Source: Armatimonadota bacterium (GTDB lineage Bacteria > Armatimonadota > Fimbriimonadia > Fimbriimonadales > GBS-DC). Taken from it: a stretch of 33,264 bases of DNA. This document shows, in pieces, positions 5,289 through 16,402 of the stretch. Position 1 is the stretch's first letter; the number at the start of each line of letters is the position of its first letter. The stretch covers positions 1 to 33,264 of the forward strand of contig JBBIML010000032.1 of NCBI GenBank assembly GCA_037444405.1, read 5' to 3'. Made by a program: the position numbers and the translations under genes. A model generated the notes under the pieces. It ran no database searches. It saw only the letters and a list, made by a program, of their open reading frames with translations, and was not told the DNA's origin.

Positions 5289-7133
5289 TCAGGGTGCAGG
5301 GGGTTTCAGGATAGCGCTGGGCGCCATGCGCGGGCGCGGCGCGAGCGACGATTCGCGCCAGCCGAGCGCGTCGACGCGGGGCAGCTCATACACCAGCAGG
5401 CGATAGGGTCCCACGCGCCCGCGCAGCATCGGGTGCGCCGCCGGCTCCACCCGATCCGATACCGTGTACCAGCGGCTCAAATCGGCGCCCGATGTCCAGA
5501 ACCGAATCAGCGTCTCTTCGGAGCCGACCACCAGCAGGTGCGTGGCGCCCATCGCCTGCGGCGGCTGACGGTCGTTGCACAGCCCGCGAAACACGAAAAA
5601 GTAGCGGAACGGCGTCTCAAACGCCACGCCCACCAGCACCGACCCCTCCGGCAACGCGCGGGTCAACTGCTGATTGAACTCCCTGAGCTGATAGGTGCGC
5701 CCGGCAAAGTAGCTGATGTACCACGGCGTGTTGAGCAGTAGCCCGACCGCCGTCATGAGCGTGGCAAGGGCAGGTGAGGCGCGCAGGGCGAGGCGCCCTG
5801 CCACACGCGGCAGCAACCATGCGAGACAGCCTGCCGCCACAAACGCCACCATCAGCAATCGCGCACGCAGGCGATTGTCCAGCACAGGGAACTCCATCGT
5901 GCGCCACTCCACACCGGGCAACGCCAGCAACAGCAGAAAATAGACCACCCCCGCGCCGATTAGCAGCCGTGCCAGCCAGCTTTTGAAACCCGATTCAGTG
6001 AGCAGCCAGCGCAGATGCTCGAAGCGGGCAATCGCAATCCATAGCAAAGCAACCATTGCGGGTATGAACCCTGCCGTGTAGCGCGTGGGCGCAATCCGCA
6101 TCAGTGTCATCTGCAGCCAGCTCAGCGCGACCCAGCCAATCAGCACCCACTCGACCGGCGTCAGTGCGGCACGCAGGCGCGCGGAACGCACCACGCCCAC
6201 CAGCATGAGCAGGCTACCCAGCCACGCGAGCGGCGCATGCAGGAACAGGAACTGCATCAGCCCGTAGCGCTCGCCGATCAGCGCGGTCTGAACCGCCCGC
6301 CACGCCTCCGCCCAGCTGTGCGGGCGACCCTGCACGCGCAGATAGAACGCCTGCATGCGGCTCCATGTCTCCCAGTGGGGCATCAGCCACAGGAAGAGCC
6401 AGAGCGCGCCCACTATGAGCATGCCCATCAGCACCGCCAGCCCGATAGCGCGCGCCGACGCCACCGATTCGCGATCGAAAAGCGGTGCGAGCAGCCCCAC
6501 CGCCACCAGCGCCGCCACAAACGGCAGCGTGGTCAACTTGGTTGCCAGCGCCAGCAGCGCCGCCGCGCCCGACAGTCCGCCCCAGATGAGCGCGCCCCAC
6601 CGCCGCGGACAGACCGTCGCCTCCGCGAACAGCCAGAGGCTCAACAGACAGAAGAACGCGGCGGGCGTCTCCAGCAACGCGGTGCGGTTATACAGCAGAT
6701 AGAGATGCTCATACGCCAGCCATGCCGCACCCAGCCACGCCAGAACCGCTGCCGAGGGCACTGCCCGCTGCGCCACACCCGCACCCCGAAACGCAATCCA
6801 TAACAGGCGAGCTAACAGCACCACACCGAGCAGTCCCAGCGCCACCGACACCAGCCGACCCTGCACATAGCCCACCCCAAAATGCGAGAAAACCCACACA
6901 TGCAGCCCGTGAACCAGCGGACTCAGCACCGCATTATTGAACTCATCCAGATTCGCCTGCCCGAACAGCACCTGATTGCGGGCGTTGTGCATGTAGAACG
7001 CCTCATCGGTGAGCAGACCGGGGTTCCAGTCGAGCCGCCAGTCGGGGTCGGCATCGAGGCTATAGAGTCGCAGCCCTATCGCCAGCGCAAAGATGGGCAG
7101 CACAATCAGCCATCCGAAGGCGCTCCCTCTCAT
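5289..7133 (-). CDS. GT-C fold (ArnT/PMT, GT39/GT83-like) integral membrane glycosyltransferase
   Basis: N-terminal TM then 'TDEAFY..NA' acidic motif, 'GRLVSV..G', 'R.ALLETPAAFF', 'LATK', many TM helices. Confidence 0.75.
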   Translation of the reverse strand: MRGSAFGWLIVLPIFALAIGLRLYSLDADPDWRLDWNPGLLTDEAFYMHNARNQVLFGQANLDEFNNAVLSPLVHGLHVWVFSHFGVGYVQGRLVSVALGLLGVVLLARLLWIAFRGAGVAQRAVPSAAVLAWLGAAWLAYEHLYLLYNRTALLETPAAFFCLLSLWLFAEATVCPRRWGALIWGGLSGAAALLALATKLTTLPFVAALVAVGLLAPLFDRESVASARAIGLAVLMGMLIVGALWLFLWLMPHWETWSRMQAFYLRVQGRPHSWAEAWRAVQTALIGERYGLMQFLFLHAPLAWLGSLLMLVGVVRSARLRAALTPVEWVLIGWVALSWLQMTLMRIAPTRYTAGFIPAMVALLWIAIARFEHLRWLLTESGFKSWLARLLIGAGVVYFLLLLALPGVEWRTMEFPVLDNRLRARLLMVAFVAAGCLAWLLPRVAGRLALRASPALATLMTAVGLLLNTPWYISYFAGRTYQLREFNQQLTRALPEGSVLVGVAFETPFRYFFVFRGLCNDRQPPQAMGATHLLVVGSEETLIRFWTSGADLSRWYTVSDRVEPAAHPMLRGRVGPYRLLVYELPRVDALGWRESSLAPRPRMAPSAILKPPAP

Positions 7134-8178: not shown

Positions 8179-10254
8179 ATGAAGGAGTTGTCGGTGGTGC
8201 GGGTGCGGATTTCCGCGCCCGCGATGCGCCTTTTACATCATGCGCAGGTGCTGGCGCAGTCGATCCGCGCCGACGCCCGCCACCTGTTGCTGGCGCTGAT
8301 TCAGCATCACCGCAACACGCTCCACCAGCTGGCGCCGGAGCTGGACATCGATGCGCTTCAGCAGGCGCTCCAGCAGGAGCTGAGCGGCGGCGATGAATCG
8401 TTCGCCTTCTCGCTCGATCAGGTGGTTCAGCTGGCGGCGGAGCAGGCGGTGCGCGAGGGCAAGCAATGGATCTCTGTGCGGCACCTGGGTCAGTCGCTGC
8501 TGTTATTGCGCCAGCATCGGGCGTCGGCTTCCGGGTCGGGCTTCCGCATATTAAGCGCGGGGCTGAATCTGACCGAGCAGGCGAAGGCGGGCGCACTGCC
8601 GCAGGTGGTGGGGCGCGACGCGGAGATCGAGTGCCTGATGGAGGTGCTGTGCCGCCCGATCAATCCCTACGCGGTGCTGGTGGGGCTGGAGGGCGTCGGG
8701 CGACGTGCCGTCGTGCAGGGGCTGGCACAGCGCATCGCGGCAGGCACCGTGCCCCCAACGCTCCAGAACCGACCCGTGATCCTGTTCCCGCAGCTCATCG
8801 ACGCGCCCGATTTCTATATTCAGCTGGTGGAGGAGGCGAGCGCGGCGAACGCGATTCTCTATCTGGAGCCGTTCGAGATTTTCCTGAACGCGCCCGCGCC
8901 GCCGCTGGAAGCGCTGCGCCTGCAGTTCTTGAGCGATCTGGTGACCCGCCGCATCCCCGTTATCGGCGCGGTGAGCAGCCTTGAAAACCTGCAGCGTCAG
9001 GTCGGGCACGCACCCGACCTGCTCAAGCGGTTCCAGCCCATCCCCGTGCATCCGCTGGACGCGCAGGAGACACTGATTGTGCTGCAGCAGTTGCGCGACC
9101 ATTTCCGTACGCAGCTGGGCATCGACATCAGCGACGGGACGCTGCAGCTGATGGTGCAGGTCGCTGACGAGAATATCCGCCATCGCCCCTTCCCCGACAA
9201 GGCGATTATGATTCTGGATCAGGCGGTCGGTCGCGCCCGCATGCTGGGGCTGAACCAGATCGAGCCGCGCCTCGTGTGGGAGGTCACGGAGCGCATCACG
9301 GGTCTGCCGATAGGCGCGGGCGAACGGTCGCTGATGGAGCGCCTGCAGGGGCTGGAGGCTTATCTGAAAAGCTGCATCGTTGGTCAGGACGCCGCCATCG
9401 AAACGCTGGTGCGGGTGTTCAGCCTCAAGATTCGGCGGCTGGACCTGCGCCCGGAGCGACCGAACGGGGTGTTCCTGTTTGTCGGACCGACGGGCGTGGG
9501 CAAGACGGAGATGGCGCGTGCCCTCGCCGAATACTTCTTCGGCTCGCGCGACCGACTGCTCCGCCTCGATATGAACCAGTTCTTTGAGGCGCACACGGTC
9601 GCCCGATTGCTGGGCGCGGAACCCGGCTATGTGGGCTTTGAAATGGGCAGCCCCCTGCTCGATTTCGTCGCCGAGAACCCCTTCTGCGTCGTGCTGTTAG
9701 ACGAGATCGAGAAGGCGCACGCGGAGGTGCATAAGGTCTTCCTGCAGATTTTTGATGATGGCTATATCATCGACACGCAGGGGCGGCGCATCTCGTTCGC
9801 CGACACGATTATCGTGATGACCTCCAACCTGCACCCAGAGACAGCCGTTGGTTTCCTGCGCGAGAAGCATTCGCCCGAGGATTGGCGCCGGCTGTTCGCC
9901 GAGAGCTTCTCGCCAGAGTTTGTGAACCGAATCGATGCGCTGTGCGTCTTTCAGCCGCTGGAGAAGGCGCATATGCGACAGATTATCGAGACGCGCTTCC
10001 TGCCGCGCCTGCAGGAGATGTATCGGCGGCGCGGGCTGGAGGTGGCGGTAGACGACGCCGTTATCGACTGGTTGGCGGAGCAGGGCTATCATGAGCATTA
10101 CGGCGCCCGCGAGCTGGAGCGGGCGGTGGAACGCGAGCTGCTGATGCTGATTGCGCCCTATGTGCCCACCGCTGTCGACAGCGCAGGTCAGCCGCCCCGC
10201 GCCCTTCGCGTTGAGCTGCTCGGCGGTCAGCTCCGCGTGCAGGAAGCGAGTTAG
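8179..10254 (+). CDS. ClpA/ClpC-type AAA+ ATPase with degenerate first ATPase module
   Basis: Clp N-like region, VVGRDAEI, FPDKA, IVGQD, GPTGVGKTE, GYVG, LLDEIEKAH, MTSN, VGF loop, PEFVNRID, GARELER. Start is 8179 (ATG) or 8194 (GTG after AAGGAG). Confidence 0.9.
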   Translation: MKELSVVRVRISAPAMRLLHHAQVLAQSIRADARHLLLALIQHHRNTLHQLAPELDIDALQQALQQELSGGDESFAFSLDQVVQLAAEQAVREGKQWISVRHLGQSLLLLRQHRASASGSGFRILSAGLNLTEQAKAGALPQVVGRDAEIECLMEVLCRPINPYAVLVGLEGVGRRAVVQGLAQRIAAGTVPPTLQNRPVILFPQLIDAPDFYIQLVEEASAANAILYLEPFEIFLNAPAPPLEALRLQFLSDLVTRRIPVIGAVSSLENLQRQVGHAPDLLKRFQPIPVHPLDAQETLIVLQQLRDHFRTQLGIDISDGTLQLMVQVADENIRHRPFPDKAIMILDQAVGRARMLGLNQIEPRLVWEVTERITGLPIGAGERSLMERLQGLEAYLKSCIVGQDAAIETLVRVFSLKIRRLDLRPERPNGVFLFVGPTGVGKTEMARALAEYFFGSRDRLLRLDMNQFFEAHTVARLLGAEPGYVGFEMGSPLLDFVAENPFCVVLLDEIEKAHAEVHKVFLQIFDDGYIIDTQGRRISFADTIIVMTSNLHPETAVGFLREKHSPEDWRRLFAESFSPEFVNRIDALCVFQPLEKAHMRQIIETRFLPRLQEMYRRRGLEVAVDDAVIDWLAEQGYHEHYGARELERAVERELLMLIAPYVPTAVDSAGQPPRALRVELLGGQLRVQEAS

Positions 10255-10272
10255 CCGTGAGGGAGGTTGCCG

Positions 10273-10842
10273 ATGCGCGTGCTGGTGATCGATAACTACG
10301 ATAGCTTCACCTACAATCTGGTTCAGTATCTGGGCGAGCTGGGCGCGACGGTGCAGGTGGTGCGCAACGACGCGCTGACCGTCGACGCGGTGCTGGCGCT
10401 GGTACCCGATTGCCTTGTGATCTCGCCTGGACCCTGCACGCCGAATGAAGCGGGCATCTGCGTGCCGCTCATTCGCGCGGCGGCGGGCAAAATCCCTCTG
10501 CTGGGCGTGTGTCTGGGTCATCAGGCGATTGGCGCGGCGTTCGGCGGCGAGATTGTGCGCGCCCTGCGCCCGATGCACGGCAAGACCTCGCTCGTGCGCC
10601 ATACCGATCAGGGCGTGTTTCGCGGCTTGCCGAACCCGCTCAGGGTCATCCGCTACCATTCGCTGGTCATCCGCCGCGAGAGCCTGCCCGCCGAGCTGGA
10701 AATCACCGCCGAGACCGACGAGGGCGAGATTATGGGCGTCCGCCATCGACGCTACCCCATCGAAGGCGTGCAGTTCCATCCCGAATCGATCATGAGCGAG
10801 GCAGGCAAGGAGCTGCTGAAGAACTTTTTGACCCGCCCGTAG
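10273..10842 (+). CDS. trpG: Anthranilate/aminodeoxychorismate synthase glutamine amidotransferase component II (TrpG/PabA)
   Basis: [43 protein letters not shown] before 10273. Confidence 0.95.
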
Positions 10843-10854
10843 CCTGCGAGAAAG

Positions 10855-10963
10855 CCCTCACCCCCAGCCCCTCTCCCACGCTGTGGGAGAGGGGAGTCTA
10901 ATCCCTCTCCCCATGAAGGGGGAGAGGGCGTGGTGATGAAGGGCAGAGGGCGTGGTGATGAAG
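10855..10963. repeat. Inverted pair of CCCTCTCCC/GGGAGAGGG palindromic units plus a 19-bp tandem duplication
   Basis: Stems at 10868-10894 (12 bp perfect) and 10903-10928 (10 bp). AGAGGGCGTGGTGATGAAG at 10923 and 10945. Confidence 0.8.
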
Positions 10964-11035
10964 AGTAGGAGCGTGGTTCCCGCGCCCTTCTTCAGGCGAT
11001 TCAGGCAGTGGGGCGTGGGAACCATGCCCCACTCT
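10962..11035. repeat. GTAG-type REP doublet (REPIN-like) overlapping the scpB 3' end
   Basis: AGAGTAGGAGCGTGGTTCCCGCGCCC (10962-10987) is an imperfect inverted copy of GGGCGTGGGAACCATGCCCCACTCT (11011-11035). Confidence 0.65.
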
Positions 11036-11531
11036 CTTCAGGCGGTTCGGGCAGCTCGTCCAGGCTGTTCAGCCCGAAGTAGTGCAGGAACTGCGCCGTT
11101 GTGCCGTACAGCACGGGTCGACCGGGCGCCTCTTTGCGCCCCACTTCGGCGATCAGTCCTCTTGCCACCAGCTGGCGCACGGTGTGGCTGCTGTCCACGC
11201 CGCGCAGGGCGTCGATCTGCGCCTGGGTGACGGGCTGCTCGTAGGCGACAATCGCCAGCACCTCCAGCGCGGCGCGCGAGAGCTTCTTCGGGGGTGGGTT
11301 CAGCAGGCGGGCGATATAGGGCGCATATTCGGGCTTCGTCGCGAGCTGATAGCCGCCCGCGACGCGCAGGAGCTGAATCGGTCCCTGCGCCGTTAGTTCG
11401 CGCTCCAGCTGGTTCAGCGCAGCCTCCACCCCATCGGGCGGCTGACCCAGCGCCTCGCTCAGCGTCTCGATGGTCAGCGGCGAATCCGCCACGAACAGCA
11501 GCGCAAACAGTGCATCCCGTATCGTTTCCAT
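11001..11531 (-). CDS. scpB: SMC-Scp complex subunit ScpB
   Basis: ALLFVA..PL, VAGGYQL.TKPE, LSRAALEVLAIVAYEQPVT..IDALRGVDS, GRKEAPGRP.LYGTT..FL.YFGL..L.ELP. Confidence 0.96.
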   Translation of the reverse strand: METIRDALFALLFVADSPLTIETLSEALGQPPDGVEAALNQLERELTAQGPIQLLRVAGGYQLATKPEYAPYIARLLNPPPKKLSRAALEVLAIVAYEQPVTQAQIDALRGVDSSHTVRQLVARGLIAEVGRKEAPGRPVLYGTTAQFLHYFGLNSLDELPEPPEESGAWFPRPTA

Positions 11532-11532
11532 C

Positions 11533-12435
11533 TCAGAATCGCCAGAGCAGATAGAGCAGCAGCGCGGCGGTCGGCAGCAGCACGAGCAGGCTCGCCCACT
11601 TCTCCTGACGGGAGAGCTGGAACGCCCGCCAGTTGACCGCGAGGATGACGACCGCCATCGGCACGAGCGCGGGCAGCGCGGGTGTGACGCCCACCATCAC
11701 CAGCACCAGATACGCCCACAGCGTTAGAAATAGCCCGACCGCTGTGGCGAAGGGACGCAGCCCGAACCGATAGAGGCACGCCGCGTAGAGCGCCAGAAAC
11801 ACGAAATCGCCCGCGCCCACCAGCGCAATCGGCACCACACGCTTGACCGCGGGCGTCGCCAGACCGGGCGACGCCAGAATCGCGACCGCTGCCCGCTCCA
11901 GCACCGCCGGTGCCGTCTCCATCACCCGCTTCACAAAGCCCACAGGCGTCAGCACCGTGAGCGCGTCGATCAGCGCCGCGAACGGCACCACCGGCACCAG
12001 CAGGTTCCTTTCACGGATGATTCGGGAGAGCAGGCAGCCCAGCCCGATCGCGGACAGCATCAGCAGATAGCCGTGCAGGGCGCGATAGGGCACGGCGATC
12101 AGGGGCGACACCCGCTGGTGAGCCGACAGTCCCAGCAGGGTGGGCAGTAGCAGCCACAGGGCGAACGCGCTCGCGCCCCCCATCAGCAGCGCGAGCGCCA
12201 GCCAGCGATGCACTTCGCACAATCGGGCAAGCGCGAAGACCAGCCCCAGCAGCGTTGCCATCAGCGCCAGCGTGCTGATCAGCGTGCCGACCCACACCCA
12301 GCCCAGCGGCACCACCACGAACGGTGTCGCTGTCTGCAGCGCCAGATAGGCGACGCTCCAGCCCAGCCACGCCCGATCCCGCTCGCCTGCGCCCTGCCCT
12401 TCACGCCATGCAAGCCCCTTCAGCATTCCGATCAA
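11533..12435 (-). CDS. Polytopic membrane protein, putative presenilin/SPP-like GxGD intramembrane aspartyl protease
   Basis: About 9 hydrophobic segments. ALID(157)AL, VGAGD(210)FVF and LP(255)ALVPM occur in presenilin order. Start is TTG 12435 or ATG 12426. Confidence 0.7.
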   Translation of the reverse strand: MIGMLKGLAWREGQGAGERDRAWLGWSVAYLALQTATPFVVVPLGWVWVGTLISTLALMATLLGLVFALARLCEVHRWLALALLMGGASAFALWLLLPTLLGLSAHQRVSPLIAVPYRALHGYLLMLSAIGLGCLLSRIIRERNLLVPVVPFAALIDALTVLTPVGFVKRVMETAPAVLERAAVAILASPGLATPAVKRVVPIALVGAGDFVFLALYAACLYRFGLRPFATAVGLFLTLWAYLVLVMVGVTPALPALVPMAVVILAVNWRAFQLSRQEKWASLLVLLPTAALLLYLLWRF

Positions 12436-12481
12436 CCCTTCTACTATACCCCTTCTGACCCATGACGGGTATACTTCTTAT

Positions 12482-12578
12482 CAGCCGCGGGGGGTGCTGC
12501 CGTCAGGCGGCTGAGATCCCCTTTGGGGGAAACCCCTGGAACCTGATCCGGGTAATACCGGCGGAGGGAACGCGGTCA
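12482..12578 (+). ncRNA. TPP riboswitch
   Basis: P1 CCGCG/CGCGG, GGGGTGC..GCTGAGA, ACCC..GAACCTGATCCGGGTAATACCGGCGGAGGGA. Directly upstream of thiC, with -10 GGTATACT at 12468-12475. Confidence 0.96.
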
Positions 12579-12598
12579 GTGGCATCAGCGTCGCGCGT

Positions 12599-12621
12599 CA
12601 GGGGCAAGATGCCCCTGCTAC
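12599..12621 (-). repeat. GTAG-type REP in the thiC leader
   Basis: Minus strand GTAG-CAGGGGCA-TCT-TGCCCCTG (8-bp perfect stem). Confidence 0.55.
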
Positions 12622-12629
12622 TACGGTGA

Positions 12630-14030
<1,401 letters not shown>

Positions 14031-14080
14031 AAATCAAAAGAGCCGACCCGAACCGGGCAAACGCTGGTATACTATTGCTG

Positions 14081-14120
14081 GCAACAGGGTTGGATGGCGA
14101 AAGCCATCAAACCCTGTCGC
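14081..14120 (+). other. Long GAAA-capped hairpin in the 5' region of the vWA lipoprotein gene
   Basis: GCAACAGGGTTGGATGGC-GAAA-GCCATCAAACCCTGTCGC, 16/18 pairs, just after GGTATACT at 14066-14073. Confidence 0.5.
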
Positions 14121-14161
14121 TCCTCTGTCAACAGGGAGCAGGGTGAGGAGTTGATGCAGAG

Positions 14162-15187
14162 ATGGGACGGGTCTGGTTCGCTCTGGTGGGTTTAGCGTTG
14201 CTCATAGGGGGCTGTGCGGGCAGGCGGCAGATCGAGCGGCTCACGGCGCAGGCGTTGCCCGCCAATAGCGTTGTTTTCACGCTGGAGCATCTGACCACCG
14301 ACTGCCGGGGTCTGCAGGGTGATGAGCCGACCCAGTTCATCGTGCGCTGTTCCGACCCGAAGGTTCAGGTGCGGGTTCAGGCGGTCAAGCGGTCGCGCTG
14401 CCCGCGCCCGCAGGATGCGCGGCGCAAGCTGAGCGTGGCGATGGCGATGGATCAGTCGGCGTCGCTGTTTGGCACGGGTGGACGGTTCGGCTCCGACCCC
14501 GATAAACAGCGCTTTCCTGCCGCCCGACGCTTCATCGAAGCTTTGCCCGCCGATACTCGCCTGACGCTCTGTTGCTTCGCCTCGCTGAACCCCATTCAAT
14601 ATGGCGACTTCGACCTGCTGGTGCCGATGGGCGAAGGCAATCGGCAGGCAGCTGTTCGCGCGCTGGACTTTCTGGAGCAGCAGGGTCCGAGCATGCACGG
14701 CACACCGCTCTGGAACACACTGATAGCCCAGCTTAACACCCTGCGGGGTGAGCCGCCCAACCGCGAGCGGTGGCTGGTCTGCTTCACCGACGGTGCGAAC
14801 GAGGTGCCCGCCGAGGTTGTCAGTCGCACTGACGCAGAGGTGGAGGCTGCCGCCCGTCAAACAGGCACACGCCTGTTCTTTGTGTTTCTGGGCGATGAGC
14901 AATCGATCCCTGACTACCCGGCTGTGCGCGCCACGCTTCAGCGATTAGCCGATGCGACCGATGGCACGCTGGTCGCGGTGCGCGAGGCGCGCGATCTGCA
15001 GGCGGCATTCGCGGATGTGATGGGCAGCGCGAGCTATGTGCCCTGCTACAGGCTGCAGTGCGTGTTGAAGCGTGAGGGCGGCTTTCGGCGTGGCGAGAAG
15101 GTTCGCCTGACCGTGCGCGGCGGCGCCGACGGAATCGAACGCACCTTCGAACTGACCATCGGGGAGCCGACCGCCCGCCGCCTGTGA
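14162..15187 (+). CDS. vWA-domain lipoprotein
   Basis: Lipobox-like LLIGG|C, MIDAS DQSAS, GTPLW, VCFTDG. Confidence 0.8.
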   Translation: MGRVWFALVGLALLIGGCAGRRQIERLTAQALPANSVVFTLEHLTTDCRGLQGDEPTQFIVRCSDPKVQVRVQAVKRSRCPRPQDARRKLSVAMAMDQSASLFGTGGRFGSDPDKQRFPAARRFIEALPADTRLTLCCFASLNPIQYGDFDLLVPMGEGNRQAAVRALDFLEQQGPSMHGTPLWNTLIAQLNTLRGEPPNRERWLVCFTDGANEVPAEVVSRTDAEVEAAARQTGTRLFFVFLGDEQSIPDYPAVRATLQRLADATDGTLVAVREARDLQAAFADVMGSASYVPCYRLQCVLKREGGFRRGEKVRLTVRGGADGIERTFELTIGEPTARRL

Positions 15188-15221
15188 GAGGTACTGCCGG
15201 GTGGGACCCAGCTGCTGGGAA

Positions 15222-15275
15222 GGGCGCGGGGACCGCGTCCGTACGGTGTGTTCCTGGGCGGGACGCCCAGGCCAC
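15222..15275 (-). repeat. Two GTAG-type REP-like units
   Basis: Minus strand GTAC-GGACGCGGTCCCCGCGCCC (15222-15244, like the 10965 unit) and GTGG-CCTGGGCG-TCC-CGCCCAGG (15253-15275, same architecture as the 12599 unit). Confidence 0.55.
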
Positions 15276-15316
15276 GCAGGGTACACTTGCAACAAAGGGC
15301 ACATGGAGGTGAGATG

Positions 15317-16402
15317 ATGCGTGGTGTGATTATTGCTGGCGGGTTCGGCACGCGCCTGCGACCGCTGACCCTGCGCCGCCCGAAACCGCTGATCCCAGTG
15401 GCGAACCGCCCCTTTCTGGAGTATCAGGTGGCGCAGTTAAAAGCCGCAGGCGCCGAAGAGATTGTGTTCGCCACCAACTATCTGGCAGATCGGATTGAGG
15501 CGCACTTTGGCGACGGCTCGCGGTTCGGCGTGCGCATGCGTTACGCGATGGAGCAGGAGCCGCTGGGCACGGCGGGCGCCATTCGCAACGCCGTCGAGGG
15601 GCTACCGCCGATGCGCTGTATCGTGTTCAACGGCGACATTTTGACCGATTTCGACATCGGCGCGATTGTGCAGGCGCATCAGGAGCGTGGGGCACAGGCG
15701 ACGCTCACGCTCTATCGCGTGCAACGCCCGCATCCCTACGGCGTGATCGAGGTGGCGGACGACGGGCGTGTGCAGGCGTTCCTTGAGCCGAGCGAGGAGC
15801 AGAAACGCGCTGCCGACTGCGGCGAGCCGATGGAAGGCACCGATTTTATCAACGCGGGCATCTACATTCTGGAGCCGGAGCTGATTGAGCGCATCCCGCT
15901 GCGCCCCTGCTCGATCGAGCGCGAGTTCTATCCGCAGATTTTGCGCGAGGGCGTGCCCGTGTATGGTTATGAGGGGCGCGGCTTCTGGCTCGATATCGGG
16001 CGCCCGTCGCAATACATGCGGGCGACCCGCGCGCTGCTCAGCGGCGAGGTTCGCGCCGCGCTCGCGCCGCCGGGCACCCGCACGCCCGACGGCTACTGGC
16101 TGATGCACGAGGCGGAGGTGGAACCCGACGCCGAGATCGAGCCCGGCTGCCATATCGGGGCGTCCGCCCGAATCGAATCACGCGTGCGGCTCAGCGGCTA
16201 CACGGTGGTGGGCGCAGGCAGCACCGTCGGCAGCGGCAGCACCCTGCACGGCTGTATCCTGGGCACCCATGTGTCCATCGGCGACGGCTGCCACCTCGAA
16301 GATTGCATTCTGGACGACGAGGTGGTCATCGAATCGCATGTGCGCATGCGCGGGGCGGTGCTGGGCGCGGGCAGCCTCGTTCGCGCCTACAGCACGCTCT
16401 AA
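15317..16402 (+). CDS. NDP-sugar pyrophosphorylase (mannose-1-phosphate guanylyltransferase-like) with C-terminal hexapeptide repeats
   Basis: IIAGGFGTRLRPLT..PKPL, EPLGTAGAI, FNGD, INAGIY, WLDIG, LbH tail. GGAGGT RBS. Confidence 0.92.
   Translation: MRGVIIAGGFGTRLRPLTLRRPKPLIPVANRPFLEYQVAQLKAAGAEEIVFATNYLADRIEAHFGDGSRFGVRMRYAMEQEPLGTAGAIRNAVEGLPPMRCIVFNGDILTDFDIGAIVQAHQERGAQATLTLYRVQRPHPYGVIEVADDGRVQAFLEPSEEQKRAADCGEPMEGTDFINAGIYILEPELIERIPLRPCSIEREFYPQILREGVPVYGYEGRGFWLDIGRPSQYMRATRALLSGEVRAALAPPGTRTPDGYWLMHEAEVEPDAEIEPGCHIGASARIESRVRLSGYTVVGAGSTVGSGSTLHGCILGTHVSIGDGCHLEDCILDDEVVIESHVRMRGAVLGAGSLVRAYSTL

Follow-up and report, generated by a model that had tools for sequence, protein, structure and literature searches.

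The gene described here lies on a stretch of 33,264 nucleotides of DNA from an Armatimonadota bacterium of the order Fimbriimonadales (assembly GCA_037444405.1, contig JBBIML010000032.1, positions 1 to 33,264); this whole stretch is called the window below. We think it quite likely that this gene, a neighbour of scpB (see Table 1), encodes a divergent bacterial member of the presenilin/signal peptide peptidase (SPP) superfamily, that is, of the GxGD-type, A22-like intramembrane aspartyl proteases. A sequence-only reading of the same DNA had already proposed a bacterial A22-like di-aspartyl protease, and the fold search, a sequence bridge to presenilin and the invariance of the two Asp residues support this proposal. 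The 300-amino-acid open reading frame (ORF) from which it started, 11533..12435 (-), is present on translation, and the codon positions given for D157, for GAGD and for PAL were all correct when we recounted them from the sequence. Residue numbers are counted throughout from TTG 12435, in this 300-amino-acid frame. An ATG (12426) preceded by GAAGGG is found three codons inside it, and since the database protein identical to the window protein (P0002) has 297 amino acids, the true start is probably this ATG (M4), giving a protein of 297 amino acids whose annotated numbering would be 3 lower than ours.

We computed an AlphaFold model of the protein from 142 sequences (pLDDT 90.4, pTM 0.88; m0b67740abc37). 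The model has nine long helices (19-39, 44-75, 77-100, 111-139, 143-162, 208-223, 228-248, 257-267 and 276-299), in agreement with the nine or so hydrophobic segments counted earlier from the sequence, and two short helices within 167-181. D157 is held by helix 143-162 and D210 by helix 208-223, so that the two candidate catalytic residues sit on consecutive predicted helices as the two Asp of A22 proteases do, while helix 257-267 follows the PAL motif. When the model was compared with 48,161 PDB representatives in a Z-scored structure search, only 4 chains reached Z >= 8 and all of them were A22 (SPPL2a 9K93, Z 11.1, rmsd 3.9 A over 195 aligned residues; PS2 7Y5Z, Z 9.6; PSH 4HYC, Z 8.3; PS1 4UIS, Z 8.1); the next chain stood at 6.7. 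The Foldseek comparison with PSH and presenilin structures, which had been suggested as a check on the sequence-only reading, also ranks A22 chains first, its top 13 rows being all A22 (E 6e-3 to 0.2). After Z re-scoring of the Foldseek list, A22 chains fill rows 1 to 23 (Z 8.3-13.8), followed in row 24 by a nitrate transporter with Z 5.0. The re-scored PS1 structures are substrate- or inhibitor-bound (Z 13.1-13.8, rmsd 3.0-3.4 A, 185-194 aligned residues, model 47-274 on PS1 73-452), the top one being PS1 with substrate (Z 13.8, rmsd 3.2 A, 193 aligned); re-scored SPPL2a goes up to Z 12.0 and PSH up to Z 10.0. The structural alignments to A22 span model residues 47-276 only, ending at 272-276. 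An earlier model built from 22 sequences (pLDDT 81.5) gave weaker scores and the same top four families. The Atlas gave, as a lead, a cluster labelled "SPP domain" (score 0.89, rank 23). Hence, as far as a predicted model can tell, the protein has the presenilin fold of A22.

The residues which would form the active site are conserved to a high degree. In A2, an alignment and profile of 142 diverse members of the family (identity down to ~23%, mean column identity 19%), P148, D157, G207, D210, N268 and E278 are each invariant (142/142), and the PAL region is nearly so (P255 128/142, A256 126/142, L257 132/142, P259 135/142). The sequence-only reading had named D157, D210 and PAL as the places where invariance across homologues should be looked for: both Asp are found there in 142/142 and PAL in 126-132/142. 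The PAL motif of A22 is thus kept, and PALP is invariant in a sister family described below. The family consensus can be written phi-D ... G-P-[AG]-D-F-x-F ... L-P-A-L-V-P ... N-x-R-x-F ... E; at position 209, within the GxGD-type motif, Ala is found in 96/142 and Gly in 46/142, and the window protein reads GAGD. These motifs exceed chance, because their Asp and Gly are invariant in 142 relatives down to ~23% identity. D157 is preceded by F (48 sequences), V (38), I (23) or L (17), 126/142 in all for these four commonest residues only, with no Tyr among these, which agrees with the loss of the YD Tyr noticed in the sequence-only reading.

The link to presenilin in sequence goes through a second bacterial family, and rests on it because the Armatimonadota profiles alone match no presenilin of the PDB. 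The A2 profile matched 6/201 sampled Actinomycetota genomes at E <= 1e-9 and 9/201 at E <= 1e-3. Four ORFs of this sister family (L039-L042, in genomes G301, G494, G468 and G376) have 251-333 amino acids, carry the same motifs and end just after a conserved Asn, the equivalent of N268; 74 relatives were found, all annotated "hypothetical", the named ones belonging to Thermoleophilia or Gaiellales (Actinomycetota). Eight helices are predicted in them, the last helix of the Armatimonadota family being absent. The sequence-only reading had claimed an extra C-terminal helix, and two things bear this out: the Thermoleophilia relatives end after N268 and the A22 structural alignments stop at 272-276. 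When A2 was aligned by hhalign with A3, an alignment of 51 sequences of the sister family, the probability was 99.1% and the E value 1.3e-18, with D157 on D178, GxxD on GxxD, PAL on PAL and N268 on N277, an Asn likewise invariant in the sister family.

We then compared A3 with all 177,635 distinct PDB sequences. Six matches were obtained at E <= 10, every one of them presenilin-1/2 (PS1 C-terminal fragment 2.1e-4, PS2 4e-4, PS1 2e-3). LGvsDiiFfsLF of the profile aligns on LGLGD(385)FIFYSVL of PS1, and the counterpart of vPALP is LPALP. In a second stretch, which is weak, VDfySVfl..GPTkklves is placed on YD(257)LVAVLCPKGPLRMLVETA, in which D..V..GP...VE falls weakly on YDLVAVLCPKGPLRMLVE of PS1/PS2; at this first-Asp stretch the window protein reads D157-ALTVLTPVGFVKRVMETA. 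The Pfam family Presenilin (PF01080) is weakly matched by 9/51 members of A3, over model positions ~331-392, the next family being matched by 2/51, and the best of these PF01080 matches (E 0.0021) reaches 15.8 bits, the cut-off being 34.3. When both families were joined in one profile, A4, the best match in the PDB was the PS1 C-terminal fragment (E 0.0011), the second (E 0.04) being unrelated. In sequence, the sister family is nearer to presenilin than is the family of Armatimonadota. The relationship to presenilin is thus seen directly in the predicted structure, and in sequence through one intermediate family.

The family is widespread in its phylum and is covered by no Pfam or NCBIfam model. 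A word-indexed search gave 54 relatives, all "hypothetical", the named ones being Fimbriimonadales or Armatimonadota, and an exhaustive search with an HMM built from 22 sequences gave 683 representative clusters at E <= 1e-3, 203 of them at E <= 1e-30. A2 matches 287/301 of the Armatimonadota genomes sampled (229/238 of the high-quality ones, 156/159 genera), mostly with one match per genome; the phyla sampled were Armatimonadota and Actinomycetota. The window protein itself has no match in Pfam at E <= 1 or in NCBIfam at E <= 10, and none of 138 representatives scanned with Pfam showed a match in the membrane core above cut-off. One Armatimonadota family (five genomes, G016, G030, G044, G057 and G070) has neither the presenilin-like gene (0/5) nor the S49 protease SppA (0/5); its genomes are small (2.2-2.7 Mb, 96-97% complete).

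A number of observations weigh against placing this family with the presenilins and SPP. No member reaches an A22 Pfam model above cut-off: 22 close relatives gave one match to PF04258 (E 0.015) and one to PF01080 (E 0.22), both below cut-off, and the 138 representatives gave, at E <= 0.1, one weak match to PF01080 (E 0.094). No A22 chain of the PDB is reached from the window protein or from either Armatimonadota profile (A1, A2) on its own, and the Foldseek TM-scores against A22 are just 0.32-0.38, with a large global rmsd. The YD motif is altered, Tyr being replaced before D157 while the sister family has V-D, and the Ala found in 96/142 sequences at the third position of GxGD is a departure from the A22 motif. 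The two Asp stand on predicted helices 5 and 6 of 9 and not on the helices 6 and 7 of A22, and a ninth predicted helix lies beyond the PAL helix, which differs from the nine-helix transmembrane (TM) topology with Asp on TM6 and TM7. By curated models, YD motif and helix count, the family is thus not a member of A22 in the strict sense. The genome context gives no clue to a substrate, as no conserved operon was found across the loci compared. Finally, the idea that the presenilin-like protein replaces SppA found no complementary pattern: S49 SppA is present in 149/301 of the same Armatimonadota genomes (3/33 in the order of the window), so the two genes are not mutual replacements.

The predicted fold could also belong to a protein which is not a protease at all but a channel, a scaffold or something else of the membrane. 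Similarity of fold does not show function by itself, the YD Tyr is lost, GxGD is mostly GxAD and the context gives no evident substrate or partner. Against this, little or no variation is seen at the Asp pair, at the Gly of GxGD and in PAL across 142 sequences of such low mean identity and in the sister family, which is the pattern expected of a catalytic site, and the top structural matches are substrate- or inhibitor-bound states of presenilin. We regard a non-protease as unlikely. The same may be said, with slightly more firmness, of a different membrane enzyme, perhaps a transferase or one that modifies lipids, which relies on a conserved Asp pair and whose likeness to A22 would result from a convergence of helical bundles. 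Middling Z values are common among helical membrane bundles, the Foldseek TM-scores stay below 0.4, and the direct A22 sequence link of the Armatimonadota family is weak. A convergence would nevertheless have to account for the fact that, among the 177,635 PDB sequences, the A3 profile matches presenilins alone, with two motifs in register and at equal spacing, and for the wide gap between Z 13.8 and the Z 5.0 of the next fold.

A paralogue of the A24 prepilin peptidases is very improbable. These enzymes and FlaK are, like the protein studied here, prokaryotic GxGD-type di-aspartyl membrane proteases; the gene is bacterial, with a GxGD-like motif and two Asp, and one relative (L002) adjoins an A24 gene while another (L012) lies near a pilin-like gene. 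The genome of the window has, however, a separate and canonical A24 prepilin peptidase gene elsewhere (PF01478, 63.7 bits), the A24 Pfam models PF01478 and PF06750 find no match in the window protein, and hhalign of the family profile against the A24 protein gave a probability of 0.67%, a weak test as the template is a single sequence. PAL is conserved in the family; to our knowledge, A24 enzymes lack it. Last, GC-rich DNA yields many long spurious ORFs (40 ORFs of at least 60 amino acids overlap 9000-15500), but a chance ORF, or hydrophobic reading-frame artefact, is refuted by the conservation of the gene, with its 683 representative clusters, its presence in 287/301 genomes and its confident model, and this reading can be dismissed.

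Returning to the presenilin/SPP-like protease as the favoured reading, we considered its orientation in the membrane. In A2, the short loops of the N-terminal side (b-c, d-e, f-g, h-i) hold 1.2-3.1 K/R each and those of the other side (a-b, c-d, g-h) 0.3-0.4, and K/R are more numerous on the N-terminal side in 112/142 sequences. Since the K/R-rich short loops are on the N-terminal side, this distribution suggests an outward-facing position for the loop between the Asp helices and for the PAL turn, as in the orientation of SPP. The eight helices of the sister family are flanked by charged tails, of which the N-terminal one is long and highly so, and this fits an N-in, C-in arrangement. An extract of PMC12745688 gives the SPP orientation as opposite to that of presenilin and ties it to type II substrates; it also describes in SPPL2a a preformed antiparallel beta-hairpin at the active site.

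The mechanism which we propose is the following. D157, on helix 5, and D210, in Gx[A/G]D at the opening of helix 6, would be the water-activating pair inside the membrane, and the substrate site would owe its shape to the predicted beta-hairpin before D210 and to the PAL helix, as it does in presenilin and SPPL2a. Because the loop between the Asp would face outwards as in SPP, the substrates are likely to be N-in (type II) TM segments, for example the remnants of signal peptides or regulators anchored in the membrane. The protein would most likely function as a stand-alone intramembrane aspartyl protease for N-in TM segments. Nearly all Armatimonadota carry the gene, mostly in one copy and in no conserved operon, and for this reason we think it probable that the protein is a housekeeping enzyme acting alone; that its task would be the clearing of signal-peptide remnants or membrane stubs is our guess.

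It is useful to set the family beside known systems. With the SPP family (MEROPS A22B; human SPP/HM13, SPPL2a 9K92/9K93) it shares the Asp pair on adjacent helices, the GxGD-type motif, PAL, the beta-hairpin before the second Asp and, if the charge distribution is a good guide, the orientation with the inter-Asp loop outside; the structural match to SPPL2a is Z 11.1-12.0 over 192-195 residues. Unlike SPP, it has no PF04258 match above cut-off and no YD Tyr, it has four predicted helices and not five before the first Asp helix, plus the extra C-terminal helix, and it is bacterial, without PA domain or endoplasmic reticulum (ER) signals. Presenilin-1/2 (MEROPS A22A, the catalytic subunit of gamma-secretase) is the best structural match (Z 13.1-13.8) and the sole PDB family matched by the sister-family profile (GxxDFIF on GLGDFIFY, PALP on PALP). 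It differs from the window family in its orientation, which would be opposite, and identity is 14-16% over the aligned part; the inter-Asp loop of the window family is short (~40 residues) with no sign of endoproteolysis, and partners like nicastrin, APH-1 and PEN-2 are not expected for it (no search for them was made).

The archaeal presenilin homologue PSH (MCMJR1; 4HYC, 4HYG, 4Y6K) resembles the window protein in being prokaryotic, stand-alone and ~300 amino acids long with two catalytic Asp. It matches the model at Z 8.3-10.0, and identity amounts to 18-21% over 150-168 residues. The sequence-only reading had credited PSH with a PAL motif, and here it was mistaken: an extract of PMC2947513 gives YD162 and GXGD220 with "no obvious" PAL, PPL standing in its place. 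PSH thus keeps YD and has PPL for PAL, whereas the window family keeps PAL and not YD. The Pfam family PF06550 was found neither in the genome of the window nor in 151 Armatimonadota genomes, the positive control being matched in two archaea. In 301 Actinomycetota genomes PF06550 gave one sub-threshold match, in an ORF which, by its motifs, we take to be a CPBP-type protease; the count of 0/401 for PF04258 in Actinomycetota is uninformative, as its control was matched nowhere. Some bacterial members of PF06550 are listed in Pfam or InterPro.

Presenilin and SPP are central to research on Alzheimer's disease, Notch signalling and immune regulation. The relatives known to us are eukaryotic and archaeal, and the bacterial GxGD proteases which we know to have been described are A24 prepilin peptidases. 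Full-text literature searches, with subscription journals and MEROPS/InterPro listings outside their scope, returned no paper in which homologues of presenilin or SPP are described from bacteria. The phrase "bacterial presenilin homologue" does occur in an extract of a lipid review (PMC8396450), citing a native mass spectrometry study; we take it to designate the archaeal PSH. A bolder scenario, which we consider conceivable though rather doubtful, is that of an old, purely bacterial branch of presenilin/SPP in Armatimonadota and Thermoleophilia, working in the SPP orientation as a stand-alone housekeeping peptidase of signal peptides or type II anchors. If it were true, the presenilin fold would be no archaeal-eukaryotic invention and would either predate the split between bacteria and archaea or have crossed domains early, and a small, thermostable, cofactor-free model enzyme would be at hand for catalysis of the gamma-secretase type. 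The family is bacterial, core to its phylum, ~300 amino acids long, apparently stand-alone and partly from thermophiles, and it could offer an easy system for work on structure and mechanism. It would also broaden the evolutionary picture of intramembrane aspartyl proteases, and would be a fifth kind of bacterial intramembrane protease beside S2P, rhomboid, A24 and the Rce1/CPBP type.

Table 1. Coordinates in the window of the presenilin-like gene, of its candidate motifs and predicted elements, and of the adjacent scpB
Feature	Position	Strand	Remarks
Presenilin-like membrane protein gene	11533..12435	-	300 aa from TTG 12435; stop TGA 11533-11535
D157 codon, first candidate catalytic Asp	11965..11967	-	predicted helix 5 (143-162); 142/142
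G207-A-G-D210, GxGD-type motif with second candidate catalytic Asp	11806..11817	-	opens helix 208-223
P255-A-L, PAL motif	11665..11673	-	start of helix 257-267; aligns to LPALP of presenilin-1/2
N268 to E278	11602..11634	-	family-specific invariant pair; K/R-rich loop after PAL helix
Predicted beta-hairpin, strands 183-187 and 202-207	11815..11889	-	leads into GxGD motif (G207); model from 142 sequences
Extra C-terminal TM helix (predicted), residues 276-299	11539..11610	-	absent in Thermoleophilia sister family; outside A22-aligned part
scpB	11001..11531	-	PF04079, E 1.3e-56; downstream of presenilin-like gene, 1 nt apart

As the sequence-only reading had noticed, a single base separates the TGA of the gene (11533-11535) from the ATG of scpB at 11531, and because of this spacing of 1 nt the two genes are probably co-transcribed in this genome; a scan of 10800-12700 for promoters and terminators found none. 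We compared 37 loci gathered with profile A1. The scpB neighbourhood is common to 1/37 of them, being found only beside the 97%-identical relative (L001) and absent from the other 36 within the fetched flanks, so that the adjacency is incidental and has no bearing on function. Of the mapping of taxonomy and neighbourhoods which had been proposed, the first shows the family in 287/301 Armatimonadota genomes and the second no conserved operon. The only ScpA match of the genome of the window is on another contig (C7:198587-198841), with a low score of 22.5 bits, which rises to 30.9 when its in-frame neighbours are included. At the other loci the neighbours vary by lineage and include an M23 peptidase, an MqnC/CofH-like radical SAM enzyme, PriA and PBP2, among others. 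As to other proteases, the genome of the window, which is 98.9% complete, has two matches to S2P and two to rhomboid, and no S49 SppA over cut-off.

A few relatives deserve mention for their own sake. In two of them (P0104, residues ~100-226; P0074, residues ~108-180) a soluble insert of ~70-125 residues occupies the loop after the third helix; that of P0104 looked by eye like an FHA domain, an impression we dropped, as Pfam gave no match at E <= 10. In a third one, P0148, the last helix is followed by a fused F5/8 type C (discoidin-like) domain (residues 288-384, E 2e-7), and this fusion, in a single relative, hints at a C-terminus outside the cell. Last, L036 is a fragment of 40 residues, 80% identical to the window protein, at a contig end of a metagenome-assembled genome (MAG) binned as Thermoleophilia; it possibly comes from a mis-binned Armatimonadota contig, and the same genome additionally has a true gene of the sister family (L039).

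The remaining genes of the window are housekeeping genes. Two further ORFs are without Pfam match at the thresholds used: one of 614 amino acids at 5292-7133 (-), and one of 341 amino acids at 14162-15187 (+), whose N-terminus resembles the signal sequence of a lipoprotein. Divergent from the presenilin-like gene, and ~44 nt from its start, is a thiamine pyrophosphate (TPP) riboswitch (RF00059, 12480-12587 (+), 81.6 bits), directly upstream of thiC (12687-14030).

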